From NCBI GenBank assembly GCA_013115125.1, contig JABANN010000030.1, positions 62,001 to 118,592 of the forward strand: 56,592 nt of DNA. Direction: 5' to 3'. This DNA comes from Perkinsus olseni. Lineage: Eukaryota. The position numbers and the translations under genes were made by a program. The notes beneath the pieces were generated by a model. That model made no database searches. It had not been told where the DNA came from and saw only the letters and a list, made by a program, of their open reading frames with translations. The stretch's first letter is position 1. Every line of letters begins with the position of its first letter. Positions 32,211-43,045 of this stretch are shown here, piece by piece.

Positions 32211-33853
32211 TTACGATGAATTGGCCTGAGGTTCAGCCCGAAACGGAGACTCCAGAAACTTGCTGGTTGCATGCTGATAATTGGTGGGCCTCAGCACGGA
32301 AGATTTGGACTCGCCTGTCGATCTTCCGATTGGAAGCATGACTATATCGATCCAGTAGGGCAGAGCGAATGCCTCCGTCACGATGTGGTAAGGGGGCGAG
32401 ACACTACCGTTGCTCCCATGGAGGGAACCCCTCAGAGTCTCCAGGCAACCCACGTGATCCCGCGTCGAGGCTATTTGGGCGAACGAGGATGACTGAAAAA
32501 AGAAAGTCAAGGAAATGCCCAGCCCGGAGAACCCACCGAAGCTTGAAGATCGGCTAACCTGACGCCATTAAGTACTCCACGGACAGCTTTGAGCTCCTCC
32601 AATGTAGGGTCCGATACCGGCCACATCCCGAGCATGCCGGTGATAATTTGATACTTGCACGCCTCGCTCAGATCGTCGGTGAAGGCCCTCCTCGCCAACA
32701 CCAGCACAACCGCGCGGAACAGCTGAGTAGACCTCGATAGAGCAGCTGACAGCATCAGCATTGTGAGCGCTGCGACAGATATGTTGATTCGGGAGTGCAG
32801 CCAGTGAGACGAGGAGGTCGGCGGAAGGAGCTCGAGCTTGGCAGCTGCGAGATAGACCTTGGCGATGTTGTCAGGCTCCTTGCCGTCCTTCAGGGTCTCC
32901 GACAACAGCCGCGACATAACCAGCCGAACCTTGTCGTCAGCCGGGTGCAATAGCGCTTTGGCAATGGCGTTCGCGATTAAAGCTGCCCAGTCGGGACGGA
33001 TGCGCCCCGCCGATCCTCCAGAGGAAAGTAATGTGGAGACTGTGCCAGTCAAGCGAGGCATCACATGCGATAGTCCCGGGGCTTCTATGGAGCCCTTCGA
33101 CCGCACAAATGCTGCCATGATCATGGCCAAGTCCCTCAGAGAGAGGTGGCTGAGATACACGTCGCGCGCCACGAAATTGCAGACCTCTTCAAACGCTCGT
33201 TGCCACGTTCTCTTATCGCTGTTGGAACCGAAAACCTCGAGCAAATTATACATCTCGCCGGGCTTCAAGTTGGAAAGAATATCTCCAACGCCGTCAGTTT
33301 CGGCTAAGCAGCCGGCAGCAAAATCGACGTACTCCTCCACGGCCCTACGATGGAGCTTTCCCTTCGCTACCCAGAGGGACTGCGTGAGTAGCGGAGGGAA
33401 CTGACCGTATACAGAGGGACCCTGGTCGATCTGCCAGCTCAGTAACTCCTCCAAAAACGCATCAGAGTACACCCCGAATGATACTACCGCCCCAGACATG
33501 TCCAATGCACTGAGGTCGAGATATCGGCGGTCCCTGAGTAGGTCGAAAGCCGCTTCCATGGTCGGCCTTGGTATCGCTCTCTTCTGAGCTGTAGTGAGCC
33601 CCGTAAAACACATGAGGATATCTCTAGCTGGCCGGCTTCTCGCGCTCTCACTTCTGACTAACCGGTCCAATTTGGCAGCACCTAGTGGTCCGGCAGCGGC
33701 CGTGGCGAACGGCCTCCGAGCGGGAGAGCAGGACTGTTGCATTCCCGGAAGGAGGGACTGTGAAAGGGAGAGCCGACCGATGAAGCCGCAGAAGCAAGAT
33801 AGACACTCGAGCAGCCTCCCTGAACTCAACACGGGTAAGTAGGAGTCGATCAC
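32211..33853 (-). CDS. Probable organellar helical-repeat / RAP-like protein
   Basis: A 448-aa helical ORF has a presequence-like segment (RRPFATAAA). The final exon contains TEAFALPYWIDIV, resembling a RAP-like nuclease-fold end. The start is uncertain. Confidence 0.55.
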
Positions 33854-35244: not shown

Positions 35245-38200
35245 TCACAGCTCATCGTCGGCACGCCGGTGCCTGGCATCAACGCTAGCACTCTCCTCCT
35301 CCTCCTCCTCCTCCTCCTCCTCCTCGAGTACCCCGATGGGTTCGAAGCCCATGTCTCCCACGAGGCTGGCAGTGTGGACCTGCTTGAACGTCTCAGTGGC
35401 GTCCTTACCGCAGCCCTCCTCGATGGCCGACGACCCTCCGGGATGCTCGCTAGAGTAGTCGCTGAAGTCGTACACCGAACCGTACAGGGCGATCCAGCAG
35501 TCGCTCGGGGAGTTGTGCCCAGCAAGCTCTACTAAGCCGACACTCTTTCTCGTAGGCGCACGCTGCTCAGGCTGCCGAGGCTGGTCAACATCAATGTGCC
35601 CTTCAACAGGCAATCGGTCACCAATCCTCTTCCCAAAAACGGCACACTCAAGCAAGGAGTTGCCACCGAGTCGGTTCCGTCCATGAACGCCGCCAGCGAC
35701 CTCCCCGGCAGCCCAGAGGCCATCGATTACATTACTCGCAGTGTCGAGAACGTGCCCATCGGTGTCGATGCTGATGCCGCCCATGGTGTAGTGAATCACT
35801 GGGGTGACTTTTCCGACGAAGTAGCGACCATTGGAGGATGCCGGCGCAGACTCCTTCCAGGCATCGCCGCCGACAAACTTCACTGCGCCACGAAAATCAA
35901 CTTCCTGCAGGAGACCCCTAGAGCTGTACATCGTGATGTGCCTCTTGGCCGGGCCATCAATTGCGTCGTACGGTAGGAGGATGCTGAAGGCCCTCGATGC
36001 GCCACCCGTCTCATCCGCCCTCTCTAGCATCTTGGCCGTGACGTACTTCCGCGTACCAAGCTCGTCACAGAAGCGCTGACCATTTTGGTCTAGCAGCACC
36101 CCACCGACGCCCCTAAGGATCTCAGCAGCAAGGACTTTGGTACGTGCACCAGGGTCCTTGGGGTCGATGAACCCCGTGGGGTGAAGCTGAACCTGGTCCA
36201 TGTCCCTCAGACCAGCATCGGCATCGCGTACCGCTATTTTTATGCCATCACCAGTAGTGTGGGGTCCGAGAGTAGTGGGGAAGTCCAGTAAGTCAGGCCT
36301 ATACTCAGCCATCAGGGAGCCGCTCGACACATCAAAACCGAAGCCACCGGTAGCCAACACCACCGAGTTACTCAGGACCTCGATCGTCTCCTCGTTGTCG
36401 CCGATGGTATATCGCACGCCTTCGACAGTCTTATGCTCCGTCGAATGGTCGACTATCAGCCCAACCAACTGAGCGTTGTTAATAACATCAATATTAGGCA
36501 TTTTGTGAGCAACCTTCGAGCCAGCAGCAGTGAGCTCCGCACCGATGATACCTCCTTGTGGTCGTACTGTTCGCGGCCTAGAATGGCCTCCCAGCTTTAC
36601 CGGAGCGGACAGAGGCACACCGAACCGTTGCTCGACCCAGCGAACGGTATCGCGGGAATCATTCACCAGTACGTTGGCCAGTTCGGGATGCTCACAAGGT
36701 CCAAGGCCACTCTCACAACTGCGTACGGTGTCACTGAGGAAGGAGTCGTAGCACTCCTCTGTGGCGTCCATCCTCATATTGATCCCACTCGAGGCCTTCG
36801 CACTATTGCCACCTAGATGCTTGGACTTGTCCAAGAGCAGAACCCGGGCACCACGATCAGCTGAGGCGATTGCCGCACTCATGCCAGCGAGGCCGCCACC
36901 CACGACCACAACGTCGTAACTCCGTCGCGTATCCTTGGCAGTGCGCGGCTTCGACTTTAGATACCGCAGCGCATGACGACCAAACGCCTCGGCTGGGAAG
37001 CTCGCAGCCAAAGAAAGTACAGCTTCATCCTTATCGACTATGGCGTCCACGAGAAGGTCCTCGTCAGCCTGACTGAGAGGGAGCTCAGCGACGTACGACA
37101 GAGCTAGCTCCATGACCGACGCCCCCGAGTTGCTGAAGGCTGCCGCTGGGCGCGCCACACGAGCCACCAGCTTTCGCTGATCCTCGAGGTAAAGATTTGT
37201 GAGCCTGCCCACCTCCATCAGACCGTGGGAGAATTTGTGAACTGTGTTCACTAAGGCAACTATCTCATCCCGGGAGAGGGCCGAGGGCAAGAGGGACACA
37301 TCGGGAGTGAGGAGAATCTTCAAGGTCGTACCCAGCCCTAGCAGAGTAACCTTCGAATGCAGCCGGCACCGACGGCAGCGGACGCAGTTGGTCAAGGCGG
37401 TGATATTCTGGAAGACAGACTTGAACTGCTCCGCCAGCTGGCGCCTATCTGCCCGGTCCGCCGGGAAGAGACTATCCTCGTCGAAGCCCTGGAAAACAGG
37501 GGAGCAGAGCTTCATCTCGGAGGCGTCCAACAGATGCTTCATCAGCTTCTGTGTATTCTCGTCATTTGCCGGTTCGCCAGTCGAGTACTCCCAATTGTAC
37601 AGGACAGGTTTGGCCTTATGCAGGGCCCTCAAGGTCACCAGATACGCAAAGTTGAGATTCTTCAGCCAATCGGGATGCTTGCCGACCGTGGCCATGAACT
37701 TCTCATTATTCGGCTTCCACGCAACCTCGCCCTTCTTGGGTGGATAATAGTTAGCCAAGACCTGTATTGTGGTTGATTCGTGCATCCCCGAGAGAAGCCT
37801 CTGCAGGACACGCTCTTCATAGCAGTACCCACCAGTACCCAATCCTCGCCCTATACTCACACAGTTTTCGGCGTCAATGGCCTCCCATATGTGAGAGCCA
37901 TTGTAGCCAGTATTATGCTCAGGGTTCAACAGAAGATTCACGTAGTCGAGCTTGTCACTCGCCCGAGGAGGGCGACATATGTCGAACCAAAAATCAGGTT
38001 TGATGCTGCCATCATCAGCATCATCCAAGTCGTCGTCGAACTCGCCCTCGATCACGCTTGACTCAGAGTCGGTGATGAAAGGGTTCACCTCGTTGCCAAT
38101 CGGTTCTATGCTGCAGAGGGAGGCACCACCGCCCGCGGGACTCGACGAAGAGCCAAAACCAAAAGCGGCTGCCGCGCCGCCTGGAGGGGAGGACCCGCAC

Positions 38201-38517
38201 GTCACTTCGTCCTTGTTTTTATCACCCCAAGTGAAGGCACAGTCCTCGTCCATAGCAACTCGGACCAACCGGAAGTAGGTGGTGTTTGCCAGCTCCTCGA
38301 GAATAGAGTGTAGCTGCGCGGAGTTAGCTCGCTGTACTGCCTCGACCTCGCACTTTGTACCATCAACTTGACCTTTGACCAGTGAGACTGGCCGACCCGA
38401 AGGGGTATCCAAAACATCAGCTCCAAAAACAACACCGACGAGGAGCATCATCACCATTGCCATAAGAGACCGTTCGGCGAGGGGTACGCAGGACCCTCTG
38501 CCAGACGCTGTTGCCAT
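35245..38517 (-). CDS. Fusion protein: ERO1 oxidoreductin, soluble FAD-dependent fumarate reductase (Osm1/flavocytochrome c type) and cytochrome b5, with signal peptide and C-terminal DDEL
   Basis: This is one 1090-aa ORF. Signal peptide: MVMMLLVGVVFG. ERO1: TYFRLVRV, LLNPEHNTGY, RLLSGMH, NCVRCRRCRL, LSRDEIVALVN. Reductase: GGGLAG, GGNSAKASSGIN, GGHSRPRT, QLHPTG, AEILRG, HYTMGG, NRLGGNSLLEC. b5: HNSPSDCWIALYGSVYD..HPGG..GKDAT..H. The chain ends RADDEL. Confidence 0.95.
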   Translation of the reverse strand: MATASGRGSCVPLAERSLMAMVMMLLVGVVFGADVLDTPSGRPVSLVKGQVDGTKCEVEAVQRANSAQLHSILEELANTTYFRLVRVAMDEDCAFTWGDKNKDEVTCGSSPPGGAAAAFGFGSSSSPAGGGASLCSIEPIGNEVNPFITDSESSVIEGEFDDDLDDADDGSIKPDFWFDICRPPRASDKLDYVNLLLNPEHNTGYNGSHIWEAIDAENCVSIGRGLGTGGYCYEERVLQRLLSGMHESTTIQVLANYYPPKKGEVAWKPNNEKFMATVGKHPDWLKNLNFAYLVTLRALHKAKPVLYNWEYSTGEPANDENTQKLMKHLLDASEMKLCSPVFQGFDEDSLFPADRADRRQLAEQFKSVFQNITALTNCVRCRRCRLHSKVTLLGLGTTLKILLTPDVSLLPSALSRDEIVALVNTVHKFSHGLMEVGRLTNLYLEDQRKLVARVARPAAAFSNSGASVMELALSYVAELPLSQADEDLLVDAIVDKDEAVLSLAASFPAEAFGRHALRYLKSKPRTAKDTRRSYDVVVVGGGLAGMSAAIASADRGARVLLLDKSKHLGGNSAKASSGINMRMDATEECYDSFLSDTVRSCESGLGPCEHPELANVLVNDSRDTVRWVEQRFGVPLSAPVKLGGHSRPRTVRPQGGIIGAELTAAGSKVAHKMPNIDVINNAQLVGLIVDHSTEHKTVEGVRYTIGDNEETIEVLSNSVVLATGGFGFDVSSGSLMAEYRPDLLDFPTTLGPHTTGDGIKIAVRDADAGLRDMDQVQLHPTGFIDPKDPGARTKVLAAEILRGVGGVLLDQNGQRFCDELGTRKYVTAKMLERADETGGASRAFSILLPYDAIDGPAKRHITMYSSRGLLQEVDFRGAVKFVGGDAWKESAPASSNGRYFVGKVTPVIHYTMGGISIDTDGHVLDTASNVIDGLWAAGEVAGGVHGRNRLGGNSLLECAVFGKRIGDRLPVEGHIDVDQPRQPEQRAPTRKSVGLVELAGHNSPSDCWIALYGSVYDFSDYSSEHPGGSSAIEEGCGKDATETFKQVHTASLVGDMGFEPIGVLEEEEEEEEEEESASVDARHRRADDEL
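35293..35325. repeat. (CTC)n microsatellite encoding the poly-Glu tail of the ERO1 fusion
   Basis: About 11 tandem GAG codons on the minus strand. Confidence 0.9.
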
Positions 38518-38770
38518 CTTGCTAATCTAATCCAAAATAATGTTCCTGAGTAAATCGCCCAGACGTGTCACTTCCAGCCGACACAGACCGCGAGTTGGCG
38601 GCTCTGCTTCCACCGCAGAAAATGGAGACAGCACATTGTGTCCGACCTTCCCCAAACGACGGCGACAAAACACTCATCCCTCAACACAAGAAACTCCACC
38701 CATTGTTTTCACGAAACGGTTGTTGATACTACATCGACTACGGACGGTCTAGTTTGGTATATAGCTTTGA

Positions 38771-40090
38771 TCAGTCTCTCTTAAGCCTTCGCACTGTCTC
38801 TCGGACGACCTTCACTGCAAGGGGAGCTGCCAAAAACACGCTGGTAGCTATAGCGACACCAGTGTTGTCGCCGGGCACCGAGAACTCCAGCGGAATGGTG
38901 AAGGCGGCACCACCACGAGTAAAGCGGAACTTCAATATCGCCGAATCGAAGTTGGGCCACCGCAGCATCAGTGACCACTGGACCAGCGTTGGGAAGGCTC
39001 CGTCAAGCTCTTCCCAGTCACTCAAGCTCTCTGCACCATTCAACTGTTGTGAGCACTTCAGCTCAATTCCGGCACCGGCTGCCAGAGACATAGTGGGCCC
39101 GCAGGAGACCTCGAAGCCACCACTGAAGGGTAGCACCGTCTTGGCCTCGAAGGCGATGTTTCCTTCACCCTCGATTGAGAAGTTGTACTTCATAGTACAG
39201 CGGTCCCACGCCTTCATCCTGGCAAGATCCTCGTCGCTGCCGACCTCGGGATTAGTCTTCTCGATCTCGAATGCCGCGTGATTGCCATGACCAACAGCCA
39301 GAGTGACGCTGCCCGCCCAATCCTTGAAGAGCTGGAGCCCCCACGTCATCGCAGCGCCCACGCCACCCACTTGCGTCCAGGACACCGTCTGTCTCAGAGT
39401 CGAGTGTTGACCAACTTGTCGAGTAACCACAGCTTCTAACGCGGGTGGCCACCATTGCCCCGCTACAGTATCAACCATCACCCGGCTTTGCATGTACGGG
39501 CTCCATCCAGTCTGCCAAAAATATGTCATCTTGCCGACGCCGCCACCATTGGCTTGGACGTGGCTTGCAGTGACTACCGTGAAGTTGTGTCTTCCCGCGG
39601 TTATCCCCATCCCGTGAGTGAAGCTTGTATAACCCCATTGCGGGACCTCCTGCCAATTCCTGAATTTCAGGCCGGTGGTCATCTCCCCTTGTAGCTGGAA
39701 CATCCTCTGCACCTTCATCTCCTCATTGCCACGAACCATCGCTCTCACTCGTCGCTCTAGGTTTGCCAGTGTCTCGTCCTGCTTCACGACTATACCATCG
39801 GCCAGACTGATGCCATCAAGACCGTACTTGTCATAAAAGGACCTCATAGTGGGGTTGGACAGAACCCGGTAAGCATAGTTGATTCGCCTGAACGCTTCGG
39901 GATCTCCTCCTTGCGAAGCTCGCTTGTCGGGATGATGCAGTTTGCTCTGATCTAAGTAGCCCTGACGAATGGCGTCTGAGTCGCTGTCTCGAGCGACATG
40001 AAGTAAGTCATAGAGGTCCATATCCTGCGGGATGGACGACTCCCCCGTGCTGCCGGTACTGTCCCCATTTGCGTACTGAGAAGGTGGCAT
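38771..40090 (-). CDS. J-domain protein similar to DNAJC11
   Basis: The N-terminal J domain has DLYDLL, HHPDK and YRVLSNPTMRSFYDKYG. It is followed by a long amphipathic beta-strand region ending FTRGGAAFTIPL and a hydrophobic helix. Confidence 0.75.
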   Translation of the reverse strand: MPPSQYANGDSTGSTGESSIPQDMDLYDLLHVARDSDSDAIRQGYLDQSKLHHPDKRASQGGDPEAFRRINYAYRVLSNPTMRSFYDKYGLDGISLADGIVVKQDETLANLERRVRAMVRGNEEMKVQRMFQLQGEMTTGLKFRNWQEVPQWGYTSFTHGMGITAGRHNFTVVTASHVQANGGGVGKMTYFWQTGWSPYMQSRVMVDTVAGQWWPPALEAVVTRQVGQHSTLRQTVSWTQVGGVGAAMTWGLQLFKDWAGSVTLAVGHGNHAAFEIEKTNPEVGSDEDLARMKAWDRCTMKYNFSIEGEGNIAFEAKTVLPFSGGFEVSCGPTMSLAAGAGIELKCSQQLNGAESLSDWEELDGAFPTLVQWSLMLRWPNFDSAILKFRFTRGGAAFTIPLEFSVPGDNTGVAIATSVFLAAPLAVKVVRETVRRLKRD

Positions 40091-40230: not shown

Positions 40231-43045
40231 TTATTTCACAAACATAGACTGAAGCTGATCCCCACCTCGACATGGCTCATTATCAACATGCCGAGCCTCC
40301 ACACGCCCAGCCGCCGCTCGGAACTTCTCCCTCAATTTCTCAGTCACGTCCTCACCAGTTTCAACTGCTCCCGGCTCACGCAAAAAGCGCACGCCCCCAC
40401 CCACAAAGAAGGGTACCACTCCCCGCCCTTCTAGTACCGTTTCCTGGAAGACTAATAGGTCAATCGGGATGCCGCACAGGCCAGAGTCCACTCTCCGCGC
40501 TATGGTCATCGACCGGTCCGATCGTCGGCCGCTTTCAGAAATCTCGCTGTAAGAGAAAGCCTCCACGAGTCCATCGGAAGCTACTGGGACCTCAGGACCA
40601 TCCCCGCCTACCCGCTTCTGTAGGACCAATCGAGACTTATCCCCTACTCGGAGTCGCTGCCGCTGTCTCACAGACGTTACGAGGGATTCTTTGAAAGGCA
40701 GGCATTCGTCTGTACTAACCACCCTCTTGAGGGTAGAGTATACCTCAGTTCGACACCCGCTGCTGGACTTTAGTGAGAAGGACGACGACTCACTCGCACT
40801 GTAGCACTCGGACACATTATCCAACACCTCCACGACCCGTAGGGGCAACTGAATCGTGTCTCGCGCCTCGAAATTGCTACGAAGGGCCGTCCTCGCCATC
40901 GCTGTCAGTAAGGGAAGGGACGCTGGTAGATCGGTACCCGCAGGGAGACCTTCTAGCCGGGACACTAAGGCCTCCAGACCAGCAGAAATGAGGATACACA
41001 AGCTTTGGCGCGGACTCTCAGTCTCTCCCTGCGGGGCTATATCATCCGAAGCACCAACGACAACGGTAGTCGGGTCAAGATACTCCCACAACGTCACGAG
41101 GAGCTGGGCCATCCCTTCTGCTGACAGTGCGTCCCATTGAAAGGCTCCACCAGGTCCAAGCAAGATCCCCAGGGGGTCAATTTCGATATCAAGATTACTG
41201 CACGCATGCACAAGCAATGCTCTGGTCGCCTCCGACAGACTCTCCGGTGAGGCCAACTCCAAGCGCTCCGGACACAGGCTTTTGAGCCTAAGACGAGCCA
41301 CCGAGTCGTATATGCCCGCCCACAGTGCCCACTCTCTCGGACTCCCGGAAGGAACCATGGCCGTCTTCTCACTACCCCTCACTCGGTATAGCACAGCCAC
41401 CGCAGAGTCAACCCGACCTATTCTAGCACAGACGCCAAGAGCCACGGCCAGGGACGCTAGGTCACCCGGACTGGCTGCCTTCAGCAAAGCATTCGTCCAG
41501 TCGAAGGACCCAGGAGTACTGCTGGCGGCTACGACATCCGAAGAGTCACTCGGCTGGCCAATGGCAACCTCAGAAATGCCTTGTGTGAAGTAGAAGGAAA
41601 GGTAGTGAAGATACCTCAACAACGTGGCTTGATCTGCCGCGGTCGGCAGGACTCCGGATATCTCCAGGCTAAGCGCATCTCTCGCTTGGGGTCGACCTAC
41701 ACAAAGACAATGAGACACCACGGTATGCGGTGTGCGACCAAAGCAGCCCACAGCCCCTCGTTACCTGTATGCATTGCCTCCAGCAAGGCCATCACACTAT
41801 GCCTGTTCACAGCCTCCTCGCCTCTCACCGCCAACTGATTTCGTAACCATGGCCGGAAGCCGCTCGGGAAGAGGGGGCCATGACCGGACCGGGTTGCATC
41901 TCTCCAGACTTCTACCAGGGCCATTACGTCGTCCGAGCCAACGTCTAGTTTTGAGAAAAGTATGGTACGACCCACAAGGGCTTGGATGGCACTTATTACA
42001 GTGGTATCCTGGAGGTCGGCTCGACGAAGGAAAATCGGAAGAATCTTGAAGGTATCTTGAGGTCGCAAACTCGCATGTAGAGTAAGAGATATCCTCTGCG
42101 CACAGTTGATGATGAACTTGTCACTAAGCCACCCCAGGCACTCCATGGAGCCCAACAACTGCGCGACATTCTGCCCCGACACTTCCGGCCAATGACAGGA
42201 CAACCGCCACTCCACTATCTTATCCAAGCCCTCAGGCAAGCTCCTAGACGGGTCAGCAGAGACGTAGTCGGCTAGGAAGGATACTATTTGCACTAGAGGC
42301 AGGGGCCCGAACCTACGCCCTTCGTCACTGGTGTCTGCCACAGCGTCCATAACAACATTCGTGAACTGCCGAGACTCCAGCCCAAGAATCTTGGCTGCCT
42401 CGCACACATAACCTATGCTTGCCCCATCCGTCGTTGGCCCGATGGCCTCCGCGACCGACTGCACAGCGCGAGAGATATCCTTCAAAACTGCCGGTCGATA
42501 GCGTACCGGAATGTGAGCGTTCCAATCGACTCCTACACGACTGACCGCCAGGCCACACGCTCCTGCCGCTGTCCTCAACCAATGAGGGTCATCGCGCTCA
42601 TGCCACACTATCTTCATCAGGACAGCTCGGCACAGAGGGGCCACCGTGACCAGATCCGGACCCCGGGGGCCTCGACATCTCGCTATGTGCAGGAGTAGGT
42701 TGTGAGCCCCGCTGGCAGGAAGCCTGCGAAGCCTTCTCATGGCTTTGTTCACCAAGGCCGGCCAAAGGGCAAATCTATGAATCGCGTTCGGGGGTGATTT
42801 GTGGAGAGTCAATGTGTCCCTCGGAGGGATGGCCAGGGCCGCGTGACGGAAGGCCGAGACGAGATCCTGAGCGACTGAGTAGATAATAGAGGAAACTCAG
42901 CCAGTATGATGATCCACACCTGGTTCTTCCTGGCAGTGGACGCACATACTCTGGCGTCTTTGCCCACCACTCTACTGATCTTCGTGCGCGCTCTCGTCAC
43001 AACGGCAACTGCCCGGCATCGCGAAGTACCCATAAAAAGTGCCAA
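40231..43045 (-). CDS. Large probable organellar helical-repeat / RAP-like protein, multi-exon
   Basis: ORFs 41697-42812 and 40231-41751 are joined by a GTAACG...GTGTAG intron at about 41698-41764. The first exon is Arg-rich and presequence-like. The C-terminal region contains CGIPIDLLV. Confidence 0.6.

Follow-up and report, generated by a model that had tools for sequence, protein, structure and literature searches.

A conserved single-chain fusion of Ero1, soluble fumarate reductase and cytochrome b5 in Perkinsus olseni and other protists, a candidate fumarate-linked thiol oxidase of the endoplasmic reticulum

Ero1 is by its textbook definition an O2-consuming, H2O2-producing enzyme: in the canonical form the electrons go to O2, and the product is H2O2. 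How eukaryotes form disulfides without oxygen is, to our knowledge, an open question, and the sole model that we know of is the weakly interacting yeast pair of Ero1 and the fumarate reductase Osm1. According to the accessible part of Kim et al. 2018 (PMC6242907), yeast Ero1 and Osm1 together with fumarate oxidise thiols without O2. Osm1 can receive its electrons directly from Ero1, or else from reduced flavin in free form by way of a second, aromatic flavin pocket. Binding between the two proteins is weak, with a Kd of ~150-200 uM, and the authors suspected a missing mediator (PMC6242907). The same part of that paper makes no mention of a natural fusion, and a 2022 Plant Cell paper says of Arabidopsis that no alternative system of this kind had been identified there. 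Here we describe a gene of Perkinsus olseni in which the two enzymes are joined. The window, by which we mean the whole stretch of DNA analysed, has 56,592 nucleotides (positions 62,001 to 118,592 of contig JABANN010000030.1, assembly GCA_013115125.1), and the gene lies on its minus strand, as do all the features given below, at 35245-38517. It encodes in one polypeptide an ERO1 domain, a helical adapter, a soluble fumarate reductase (abbreviated FRD in module names) and a cytochrome b5 (b5) domain. We are highly confident that the product is a real, expressed, single-chain Ero1-adapter-FRD-b5 protein directed to the endoplasmic reticulum (ER). With some reserve, and judging from its sequence, we favour the reading that it is a candidate oxygen-independent, fumarate-linked thiol oxidase of the ER, a single-chain version of yeast Ero1 plus Osm1. 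An original prediction for this locus, made from the letters of the DNA, had proposed such a route, and the yeast Ero1/Osm1 biochemistry that it invoked is as stated by Kim et al. 2018 (PMC6242907).

The gene is one open reading frame (ORF) of 1090 codons without an internal stop, and the stop codon (35245-35247) is included in its coordinates. At the base composition of the window, where G+C is 52-58%, the probability of such a frame by chance is ~8e-20. Profile searches find ERO1, FAD_binding_2 and Cyt-b5 in that order, as predicted, all above the curated cut-offs. The ERO1 domain (Pfam PF04137, E 3.2e-75) occupies residues 68-434 (37216-38316) and scores 253.9 bits against a cut-off of 27, over positions 1-352 of the 354 in the profile. 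The flavin and clamp domains of a soluble fumarate reductase of the Osm1/Fcc3 type, with non-covalent flavin adenine dinucleotide (FAD), occupy residues 535-955 (35653-36915); here FAD_binding_2 (PF00890) scores 250 bits against a cut-off of 20.4 over positions 1-414 of 414, and the NCBIfam model TIGR01813, 'flavocytochrome c', passes its cut-off of 285.45 with 298.6. The b5 domain (PF00173; 64.1 bits against a cut-off of 23.7) is at residues 997-1050 (35368-35529), with axial histidines H1025 and H1048. The protein begins with a signal-peptide-like segment, residues 1-33 (38419-38517), with a hydrophobic core at about 19-32; residues ~13-33 are the sole hydrophobic segment of the protein. An alternative start is possible at M19, and the N-terminal extension is retained in the P. 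chesapeaki relative. The C-terminal tail (35248-35325) consists of an 11-residue poly-Glu tract (1065-1075), the residues SASVDARHRRA and a final DDEL (35248-35259), which is a KDEL-type ER retrieval signal. There are also four N-x-S/T sequons. From the signal-like N-terminus and the DDEL we predict an ER-luminal location. The original prediction had claimed a single stop-free ORF of 1090 residues at 35245-38517 with a signal peptide, an ERO1 domain with CxxCxxC at 37366-37386, a helical linker of ~90 residues, a complete soluble fumarate reductase with five named motifs and lacking the covalent-FAD histidine motif, a b5 domain with both haem histidines, a poly-Glu tract and a terminal DDEL. 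Apart from the linker, all of this is borne out by the profiles and by the alignments given below, and the coordinates that it gave for the CxxCxxC, the reductase, b5, the poly-Glu tract and DDEL are all correct.

Three public runs yield contigs that follow the window collinearly at >=99% identity; they show 0-1 differences from it and have no joints. Because joints are absent from the contigs of all three runs, we conclude that the gene has no intron; nor do the contigs show a misassembly at the linker, which the original prediction had named as a way in which it could fail. Run X5, recorded as metatranscriptomic RNA, has contigs at >=99% identity that cover 27/30 bins of the locus, and its depth is zero in the intergenic bins upstream of the gene. 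In run X2 neither flank of the gene has any depth; one contig of this run, 35369-37228, spans b5, the reductase and the adapter and reaches into the last Ero1 helix, and another extends to 21 nt upstream of the first ATG. A single contig of run X1 spans 35348-38800. The raw RNA reads of run X21 place 0 reads on the locus, which has no bearing on expression either way. As a simple repeat, the poly-Glu tract at 35293-35325 (11 Glu) interrupts public contigs, and read placement skips 35283-35332. The dip in depth there is technical. A scan for bacterial promoters and terminators came out near the shuffled expectation; these are bacterial signals, and the gene is eukaryotic.

What the original prediction took for a linker of ~90 residues is, in AlphaFold2 (AF2) models, the long last helix of Ero1 (416-455), a disordered stretch (455-465) and a four-helix module at 468-522 (36952-37116). 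The helical content predicted for it is there; the description as a plain linker does not hold, since the module is conserved and confidently folded. Its helices (468-478, 483-494, 498-506 and 509-522) have a predicted local distance difference test score (pLDDT) of 87-93 in the full-length model and 92-97 in a shorter one. The mean majority fraction of the module is 0.43 with 4% gaps, and both flanking tethers are variable (0.17-0.18). A profile of the module matches 149/159 proteins with ERO1 and FRD. It also matches 6/120 short FRD proteins, each at the very N-terminus, which suggests that these six are fragments of fused genes, and 8 "ERO1-only" proteins, at the C-terminal end. No Pfam family matches the module even at E 10, and it has no Atlas match. 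It is a fusion-specific adapter that marks the fused proteins. The full-length AF2 model, built on a 74-sequence alignment, has a mean pLDDT of 82.7 and a predicted template modelling score (pTM) of 0.56, against 0.86 (mean pLDDT 90.8) for adapter, FRD and b5 modelled alone, which form a compact unit. Given this difference, the Ero1 domain probably moves on its tether, much like the haem domains of flavocytochromes. The tether before b5 (976-992) is also poorly conserved, with pLDDT below 50 for 980-985. A complex prediction of Ero1 (55-445) against adapter-FRD-b5 (466-1062), run without family alignment or controls, gave ipSAE values of 0.01 and 0.00 against a mark of 0.34 and is evidence neither way.

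The phyletic spread of the three-domain architecture, which the original prediction had left to be looked up, takes in many protist lineages. A search among proteins of 599-1908 residues gave 6391 matches (E <= 0.001, 8000 scored candidates), and the best 120 of these make up the alignment to which counts of 'n/120 rows' refer. Among the matches listed, PF04137, PF00890 and PF00173 are found in the same order in 120/120 relatives. The sources named there are Perkinsus, Effrenium, Polarella, Amoebophrya, Skeletonema, Thalassiosira, Mediolabrus, Triparma, Bolidomonas, Aplanochytrium, Guillardia, Prasinococcus and Diplonema. The fusion is thus spread over perkinsids, dinoflagellates, Amoebophrya, diatoms, bolidophytes, cryptophytes, some prasinophytes, labyrinthulids and diplonemids. 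The closest relatives among the matches listed are proteins of Perkinsus olseni and P. chesapeaki, 82-95% identical. Transcriptome assemblies (MMETSP, EukProt) are the source of at least 10 of the 120, and several of these are flagged as complete ORFs of the full fusion. Public databases name these proteins 'fumarate reductase', 'flavocytochrome c' or 'cytochrome b5 domain-containing protein'. In the public annotation the orthologue of P. olseni is modelled with 1161 residues and that of P. chesapeaki with 864, unlike the uninterrupted frame of 1090 codons, which suggests that introns or ends are mis-predicted there. When the ERO1 domain was searched against proteins shorter than 599 residues, the 37 matches (the best 43% identical) included none named Perkinsus, and there is a weak case that the fusion is the sole Ero1 of Perkinsus. 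As a separate observation, the accessible part of an N-glycoproteome of Phaeodactylum tricornutum (PMC8678454) reports four N-glycosylation sites in the 'fumarate reductase flavoprotein B7FVF5'. This would fit an ER-routed orthologue of the fusion and would be unexpected for a cytosolic or mitochondrial enzyme; we give B7FVF5 as a lead only.

When the ERO1 domain was run exhaustively with HMMER against 1.84 billion representatives, 1799 proteins matched at E <= 0.001, 324 of them at E <= 1e-30. Of the best 150 matches, 102 have ERO1 only; the other 48 combine it with the reductase, and a b5 is detectable in 29 of these. The tree of the ERO1 domain was built on 99 rows, after 64/163 were dropped for an ERO1 match of <300 residues, four named canonical ERO1s among them. 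It is split with an SH-aLRT support of 100 into 29 ERO1-only rows and 70 rows that comprise all 47 fused proteins and 23 further "ERO1-only" rows. Many of these 23 sit on very short branches beside fused sisters or end inside the adapter, and many look like truncated gene models. The canonical clade of 29 includes Cyanophora, Galdieria, an amphipod record and an MMETSP transcript. The FRD-b5 tree (81 rows, 28 fused and 53 of the 107 eligible stand-alone ones) sets all 28 fused rows apart from 35 true stand-alone FRD-b5 proteins of fungi, Platyproteum and others with a support of 99; the 18 "alone" rows that fall among the fused ones include partial records (Triparma laevis, Baffinella) beside fused sisters. 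As the ERO1 and FRD-b5 trees agree, we take this to be one conserved fusion. A single origin is the simplest reading, and is not proven, because both trees are quick searches and midpoint-rooted. The fusion is under long-term selection, and its conservation in one clade is a 'Rosetta stone' argument that Ero1 and the soluble fumarate reductase work together. One protein that groups inside the fused clade, P0330 (1060 residues), has its ERO1 match at the very C-terminus (756-1060), behind 755 residues without assigned content; either the architecture is another one or the gene model may be chimeric.

For the reductase part, the best solved match by sequence is yeast Osm1 (5glg; E 2.9e-75 to 3e-74, 36% identity), which is also the top match by fold in Foldseek (E 1.5e-32, target-normalised template modelling (TM) score 0.82, rmsd 3.2 A). 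In its accessible part, Kim et al. 2018 (PMC6242907) give six Osm1 residues whose mutation inactivates the enzyme, H281, E301, R304, R326, H435 and R477, with Fcc3 counterparts H365, E378, R381, R402, H504 and R544. Our list of catalytic residues is taken from there, with the numbering offset verified on the R326A mutant chain 6ku6. In the alignment to 5glg these six residues are H779, E799, R802, R823, H909 and R949 of the fusion, identical to those of Osm1 and each kept in 119/120 rows. The motifs QLHPTG, AEILRG, ELGTRK, HYTMGG and NRLGGNS are all found and carry the six residues. The flavin-site stretch GGNSAKASSGIN, which we take to stand at the position of the covalent-FAD histidine of SdhA/FrdA, aligns with the stretch GGNSIKASSGIN of Osm1. 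The FAD of Osm1 is non-covalent, according to the same part of the paper (Kim et al. 2018, PMC6242907). We predict that the domain is an active fumarate reductase of the Osm1/Fcc3 type. The second, free-flavin pocket of Osm1 is described there as made of the aromatics W295, F297, F362 and Y363 (Kim et al. 2018, PMC6242907), and in the alignment to Osm1 and to the family rows this Osm1-specific pocket is not found in the fusion. W295 corresponds to T793 and F297 to V795 (T, S, G or V and T, V or I, respectively, across the family); F362 is replaced by M and Y363 is a Y, as read from the alignment. The loss of the W295 and F297 aromatics is expected if the reductase takes its electrons from the tethered haem and not from free FAD. 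In the b5 domain, H1025 (in EHPGG) and H1048 are kept in 120/120 and 119/120 rows and align with the haem ligands of flavocytochrome b2 and b5 chains. The best solved match of this domain is the haem domain of flavocytochrome b2 (3ks0, E 4.1e-13).

The ERO1 part matches the solved structures of human Ero1-alpha (3ahq, E 4.9e-39) and of yeast Ero1p (3m31 and 1rp4, E ~1e-28), and its helical core is modelled at pLDDT 85-98. The inner active site CVRCRRC (37366-37386; C378, C381 and C384) aligns with CVGCFKC of human Ero1-alpha, and each of its cysteines is present in 119/120 rows. The stretch LLLNPEHNTGYNG aligns with LLLNPERYTGYKG of human Ero1-alpha, and W211, H246 and R297 are invariant across the 74 aligned sequences; which ERO1 residues contact FAD is presumed here. 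Further cysteines (C93, C107, C135, C181, C219, C232 and C338) are retained in 102-120/120 rows. For the outer shuttle pair CxxxxC, the counts differ between the two clades. It is present in 15/16 usable rows of the canonical ERO1 clade (13/29 rows unusable) and in 5/5 usable named canonical ERO1s (1/6 unusable). The fused clade has it in 2/51 usable rows (19/70 unusable), both spurious and within hydrophobic N-termini. What the fusion has in that region is a disordered loop (38113-38199) with the conserved cysteines C107 (102/120 rows) and C135 (116/120 rows), the presumed outer pair, 27 residues apart on either side of a low-complexity disordered stretch; residues 100-141 have pLDDT below 50. 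From sequence, C107/C135 may be the functional equivalent of CxxxxC. In diatom members, the region of query residues 88-142 is an acidic loop of 160-236 residues with two Cys-x(13-16)-Cys pairs. The outer cysteine loop is evolutionarily plastic in the fused Ero1 clade.

In the mechanism that we propose, the terminal electron acceptor would be fumarate, in place of or besides O2. Reduced protein disulfide isomerase (PDI) would hand its electrons to the outer pair C107/C135 on the flexible loop, from which they would pass to the inner CxxC (C381/C384) and on to the FAD of Ero1. The Ero1 FAD would then deliver them to the tethered adapter-FRD-b5 unit, most likely to the b5 haem and from it to the reductase FAD. 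There fumarate would be reduced to succinate by way of H779, R823, H909 and R949, with E799 and R802 for proton delivery. The features that we infer for this route are that the reaction would run in cis, that the haem would bridge the two flavins, that the PDI hand-off would go through a non-canonical cysteine pair, and that the ER would import fumarate and export succinate.

Several points weigh against this mechanism. We know of no fumarate carrier of the ER. The fusion lacks the canonical outer CxxxxC shuttle pair, an Ero1 hallmark, so that the hand-off from PDI is assumed. With the full-length pTM given above, the placement of Ero1 relative to the FRD-b5 unit is undefined. The public contigs are no proof of one mRNA in Perkinsus olseni. 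An xDEL end is found in just 3/120 family rows (DDEL twice, ADEL once), which we presume to be those of the Perkinsus group, and an N-terminal hydrophobic window is found in just 77/121, many gene models being N-terminally cut. Finally, most carriers are aerobic or photosynthetic plankton. In Diplonema, according to the accessible part of the published account, oxygen has no effect on the three recognised fumarate reductases, for which mitochondrial, cytosolic and glycosomal locations are predicted; the fusion may or may not be among them. A link to hypoxia, as claimed in the original prediction, is not supported, given the mostly aerobic plankton among the carriers and the absence of oxygen regulation in what that account gives for the Diplonema reductases. 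A rationale in which the benefit is freedom from peroxide is at least as plausible as a strictly anaerobic one.

The explanation that best survives beside the fumarate-linked oxidase is that the parts are co-localised and not wired. Ero1 would then be an ordinary O2-dependent enzyme, FRD-b5 a general luminal redox sink for free flavins and, via b5, for other donors, and the fusion a means of ER targeting and stoichiometry. The drop in pTM from 0.86 for the C-terminal unit to 0.56 for the whole protein means that no fixed geometry between Ero1 and FRD is predicted, and stand-alone FRD-b5 proteins of ~580 residues are frequent in both fungi and protists, which shows that Ero1 is not needed for the unit to function. 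In yeast, according to the accessible part of PMC6242907, anaerobic thiol oxidation does not depend on physical contact between Ero1 and Osm1, since free FAD can shuttle between them. However, the aromatics W295 and F297 of the Osm1 pocket for free flavin are not kept, the fusion with its adapter is retained as one clade over very distant lineages, and a signal peptide by itself would be enough for co-localisation; we consider this explanation unlikely. Less likely again is that electrons leave through the b5 haem, for instance to a membrane cytochrome, to a metal or to a partner of the desaturase type, or that the unit is a safety valve or regulator of Ero1. The position of b5 at the extreme C-terminus on a variable tether would suit such an exit, as would its likeness to the haem domain of flavocytochrome b2, which takes electrons from a flavin and passes them on. 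Yet the fumarate-binding and proton-delivery residues, which a mere haem carrier would not need, are invariant, and in bacterial Fcc3 the haem feeds the reductase FAD, as the accessible part of PMC6242907 describes. We regard as very improbable that the reductase acts on another unsaturated acid of the urocanate, acrylate or methacrylate type. Urocanate reductase (6t85; E 5.8e-36, TM 0.81) and other enoate reductases do belong to this fold and Pfam family, but the best sequence and fold matches are the proven fumarate reductases Osm1 and Fcc3, the six catalytic residues are identical, and the cut-off of TIGR01813 is passed. A merger of two adjacent genes by assembly or read-through, for which we found nothing beyond the unsettled annotation seen in the two Perkinsus model lengths, is effectively refuted by the continuous frame, by the collinear, joint-free contigs of three independent runs and by the identical domain order in all of the 120 listed relatives, transcriptome-derived complete ORFs included.

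Returning to the fumarate-linked oxidase, a broader version of it is possible and, taken as a whole, somewhat doubtful. In many protist lineages, namely perkinsids, dinoflagellates with syndinians, diatoms with bolidophytes, labyrinthulids, cryptophytes, some prasinophytes and diplonemids, the main or only maker of disulfides in the ER might be a fumarate-respiring Ero1 and no oxidase at all. It would have arisen once, by fusion of Ero1, a new adapter and a pre-existing FRD-b5, and would work without O2 or H2O2. Its b5 haem would close the flavin-flavin gap of >20 A that is puzzling in yeast, and the folding of secretory proteins would be tied to a hitherto unrecognised traffic of fumarate and succinate between the ER and the mitochondrion or cytosol.

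The next gene upstream on the same strand, at 38771-40090, encodes a protein of 439 residues with an N-terminal DnaJ domain (PF00226, E 7.6e-16); the remainder of that protein has no Pfam family. Two further ORFs of the minus strand, 32507-33742 (411 residues) and 40231-41358 (375 residues), have no Pfam family at E <= 0.001.

In open-access and bioRxiv full text we found no description of an Ero1-fumarate reductase fusion and no paper that has ERO1, 'fumarate reductase' and 'cytochrome b5' together. Within that search, the statement of the original prediction that no characterised protein of this architecture was known still stands, for an architecture that is common in the databases. What is known are both enzymes and the two-protein pathway; what is new is the hard-wiring, the adapter, the added haem and the altered Ero1 shuttle. 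A conserved natural fusion is independent evolutionary evidence for the reality of the Ero1-fumarate reductase pathway, and it offers a tractable single-protein system for testing that pathway, in which the haem could bridge the two flavins. If the mechanism is true, it means peroxide-free oxidative folding, coupled to C4-dicarboxylate metabolism, in globally important plankton and in a mollusc parasite, and it implies ER transport of fumarate and succinate of a new kind. Protein production under anaerobic conditions would also gain a template for the design of oxygen-independent disulfide formation.

Among known systems, canonical Ero1 (human 3ahq; yeast 1rp4 and 3m31) aligns with the fusion over the putative helical FAD-binding core, the NPE-x-x-TGY-x-G stretch and the CxxCxxC, and C93 of the fusion aligns with the human cysteine before the shuttle loop, a partner for a long-range disulfide. 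Canonical Ero1 is a separate clade and has CxxxxC, whereas the fusion is without it and has ~650 extra residues after ERO1. The stand-alone FRD-b5 proteins (~580-660 residues) of Basidiomycota, Mucoromycota, Ascomycota and some protists have the same order of FRD then b5, are 36-40% identical to the fusion module over 97% of its length and fall in similar Atlas clusters. They are annotated 'fumarate reductase (NADH)', 'flavocytochrome c' or 'osmotic growth protein', and among the titles and abstract starts of an open-access search we found no literature that characterises them. Unlike the fusion, they have no ERO1 domain and no adapter, and they form the separate clade of 35 rows in the FRD-b5 tree. 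Shewanella Fcc3 (1qjd, 1qo8) also joins in one chain a haem domain and a soluble reductase with non-covalent FAD, the haem feeding the FAD, and its catalytic residues are those of the fusion (E 2.5e-52, target-normalised TM 0.62-0.68); it is bacterial and periplasmic, its haem domain is an N-terminal tetrahaem c-type domain and it has no thiol oxidase, whereas the haem of the fusion is in a C-terminal b5. Flavocytochrome b2 (yeast L-lactate dehydrogenase; 1fcb, 3ks0) sets a precedent for intramolecular electron transfer between a flavin domain and a b5-type haem domain on a tether. Its flavin domain is a TIM barrel with flavin mononucleotide, its substrate and compartment are others and its haem domain is N-terminal. 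The NADH-dependent fumarate reductases of trypanosomatids, with ApbE-like, FRD and cytochrome b5 reductase domains, are another multi-domain soluble reductase of protists. They take electrons from NADH through the domain of b5-reductase type, have no Ero1 and no b5 haem, and are glycosomal or mitochondrial. The closest system is that of yeast Ero1p and Osm1, with the same two enzyme families, the same ER compartment and the same proposed route from thiol to Ero1 FAD, reductase FAD and fumarate. There it takes two proteins; Osm1 lacks a haem domain and receives free flavin in an aromatic pocket that is not kept in the fusion, while the fusion is one polypeptide with a b5 haem domain and a helical adapter. 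With its covalent tether, its attached b5 haem and its lost free-flavin pocket, the fusion looks like an answer to the weaknesses of the yeast pair.

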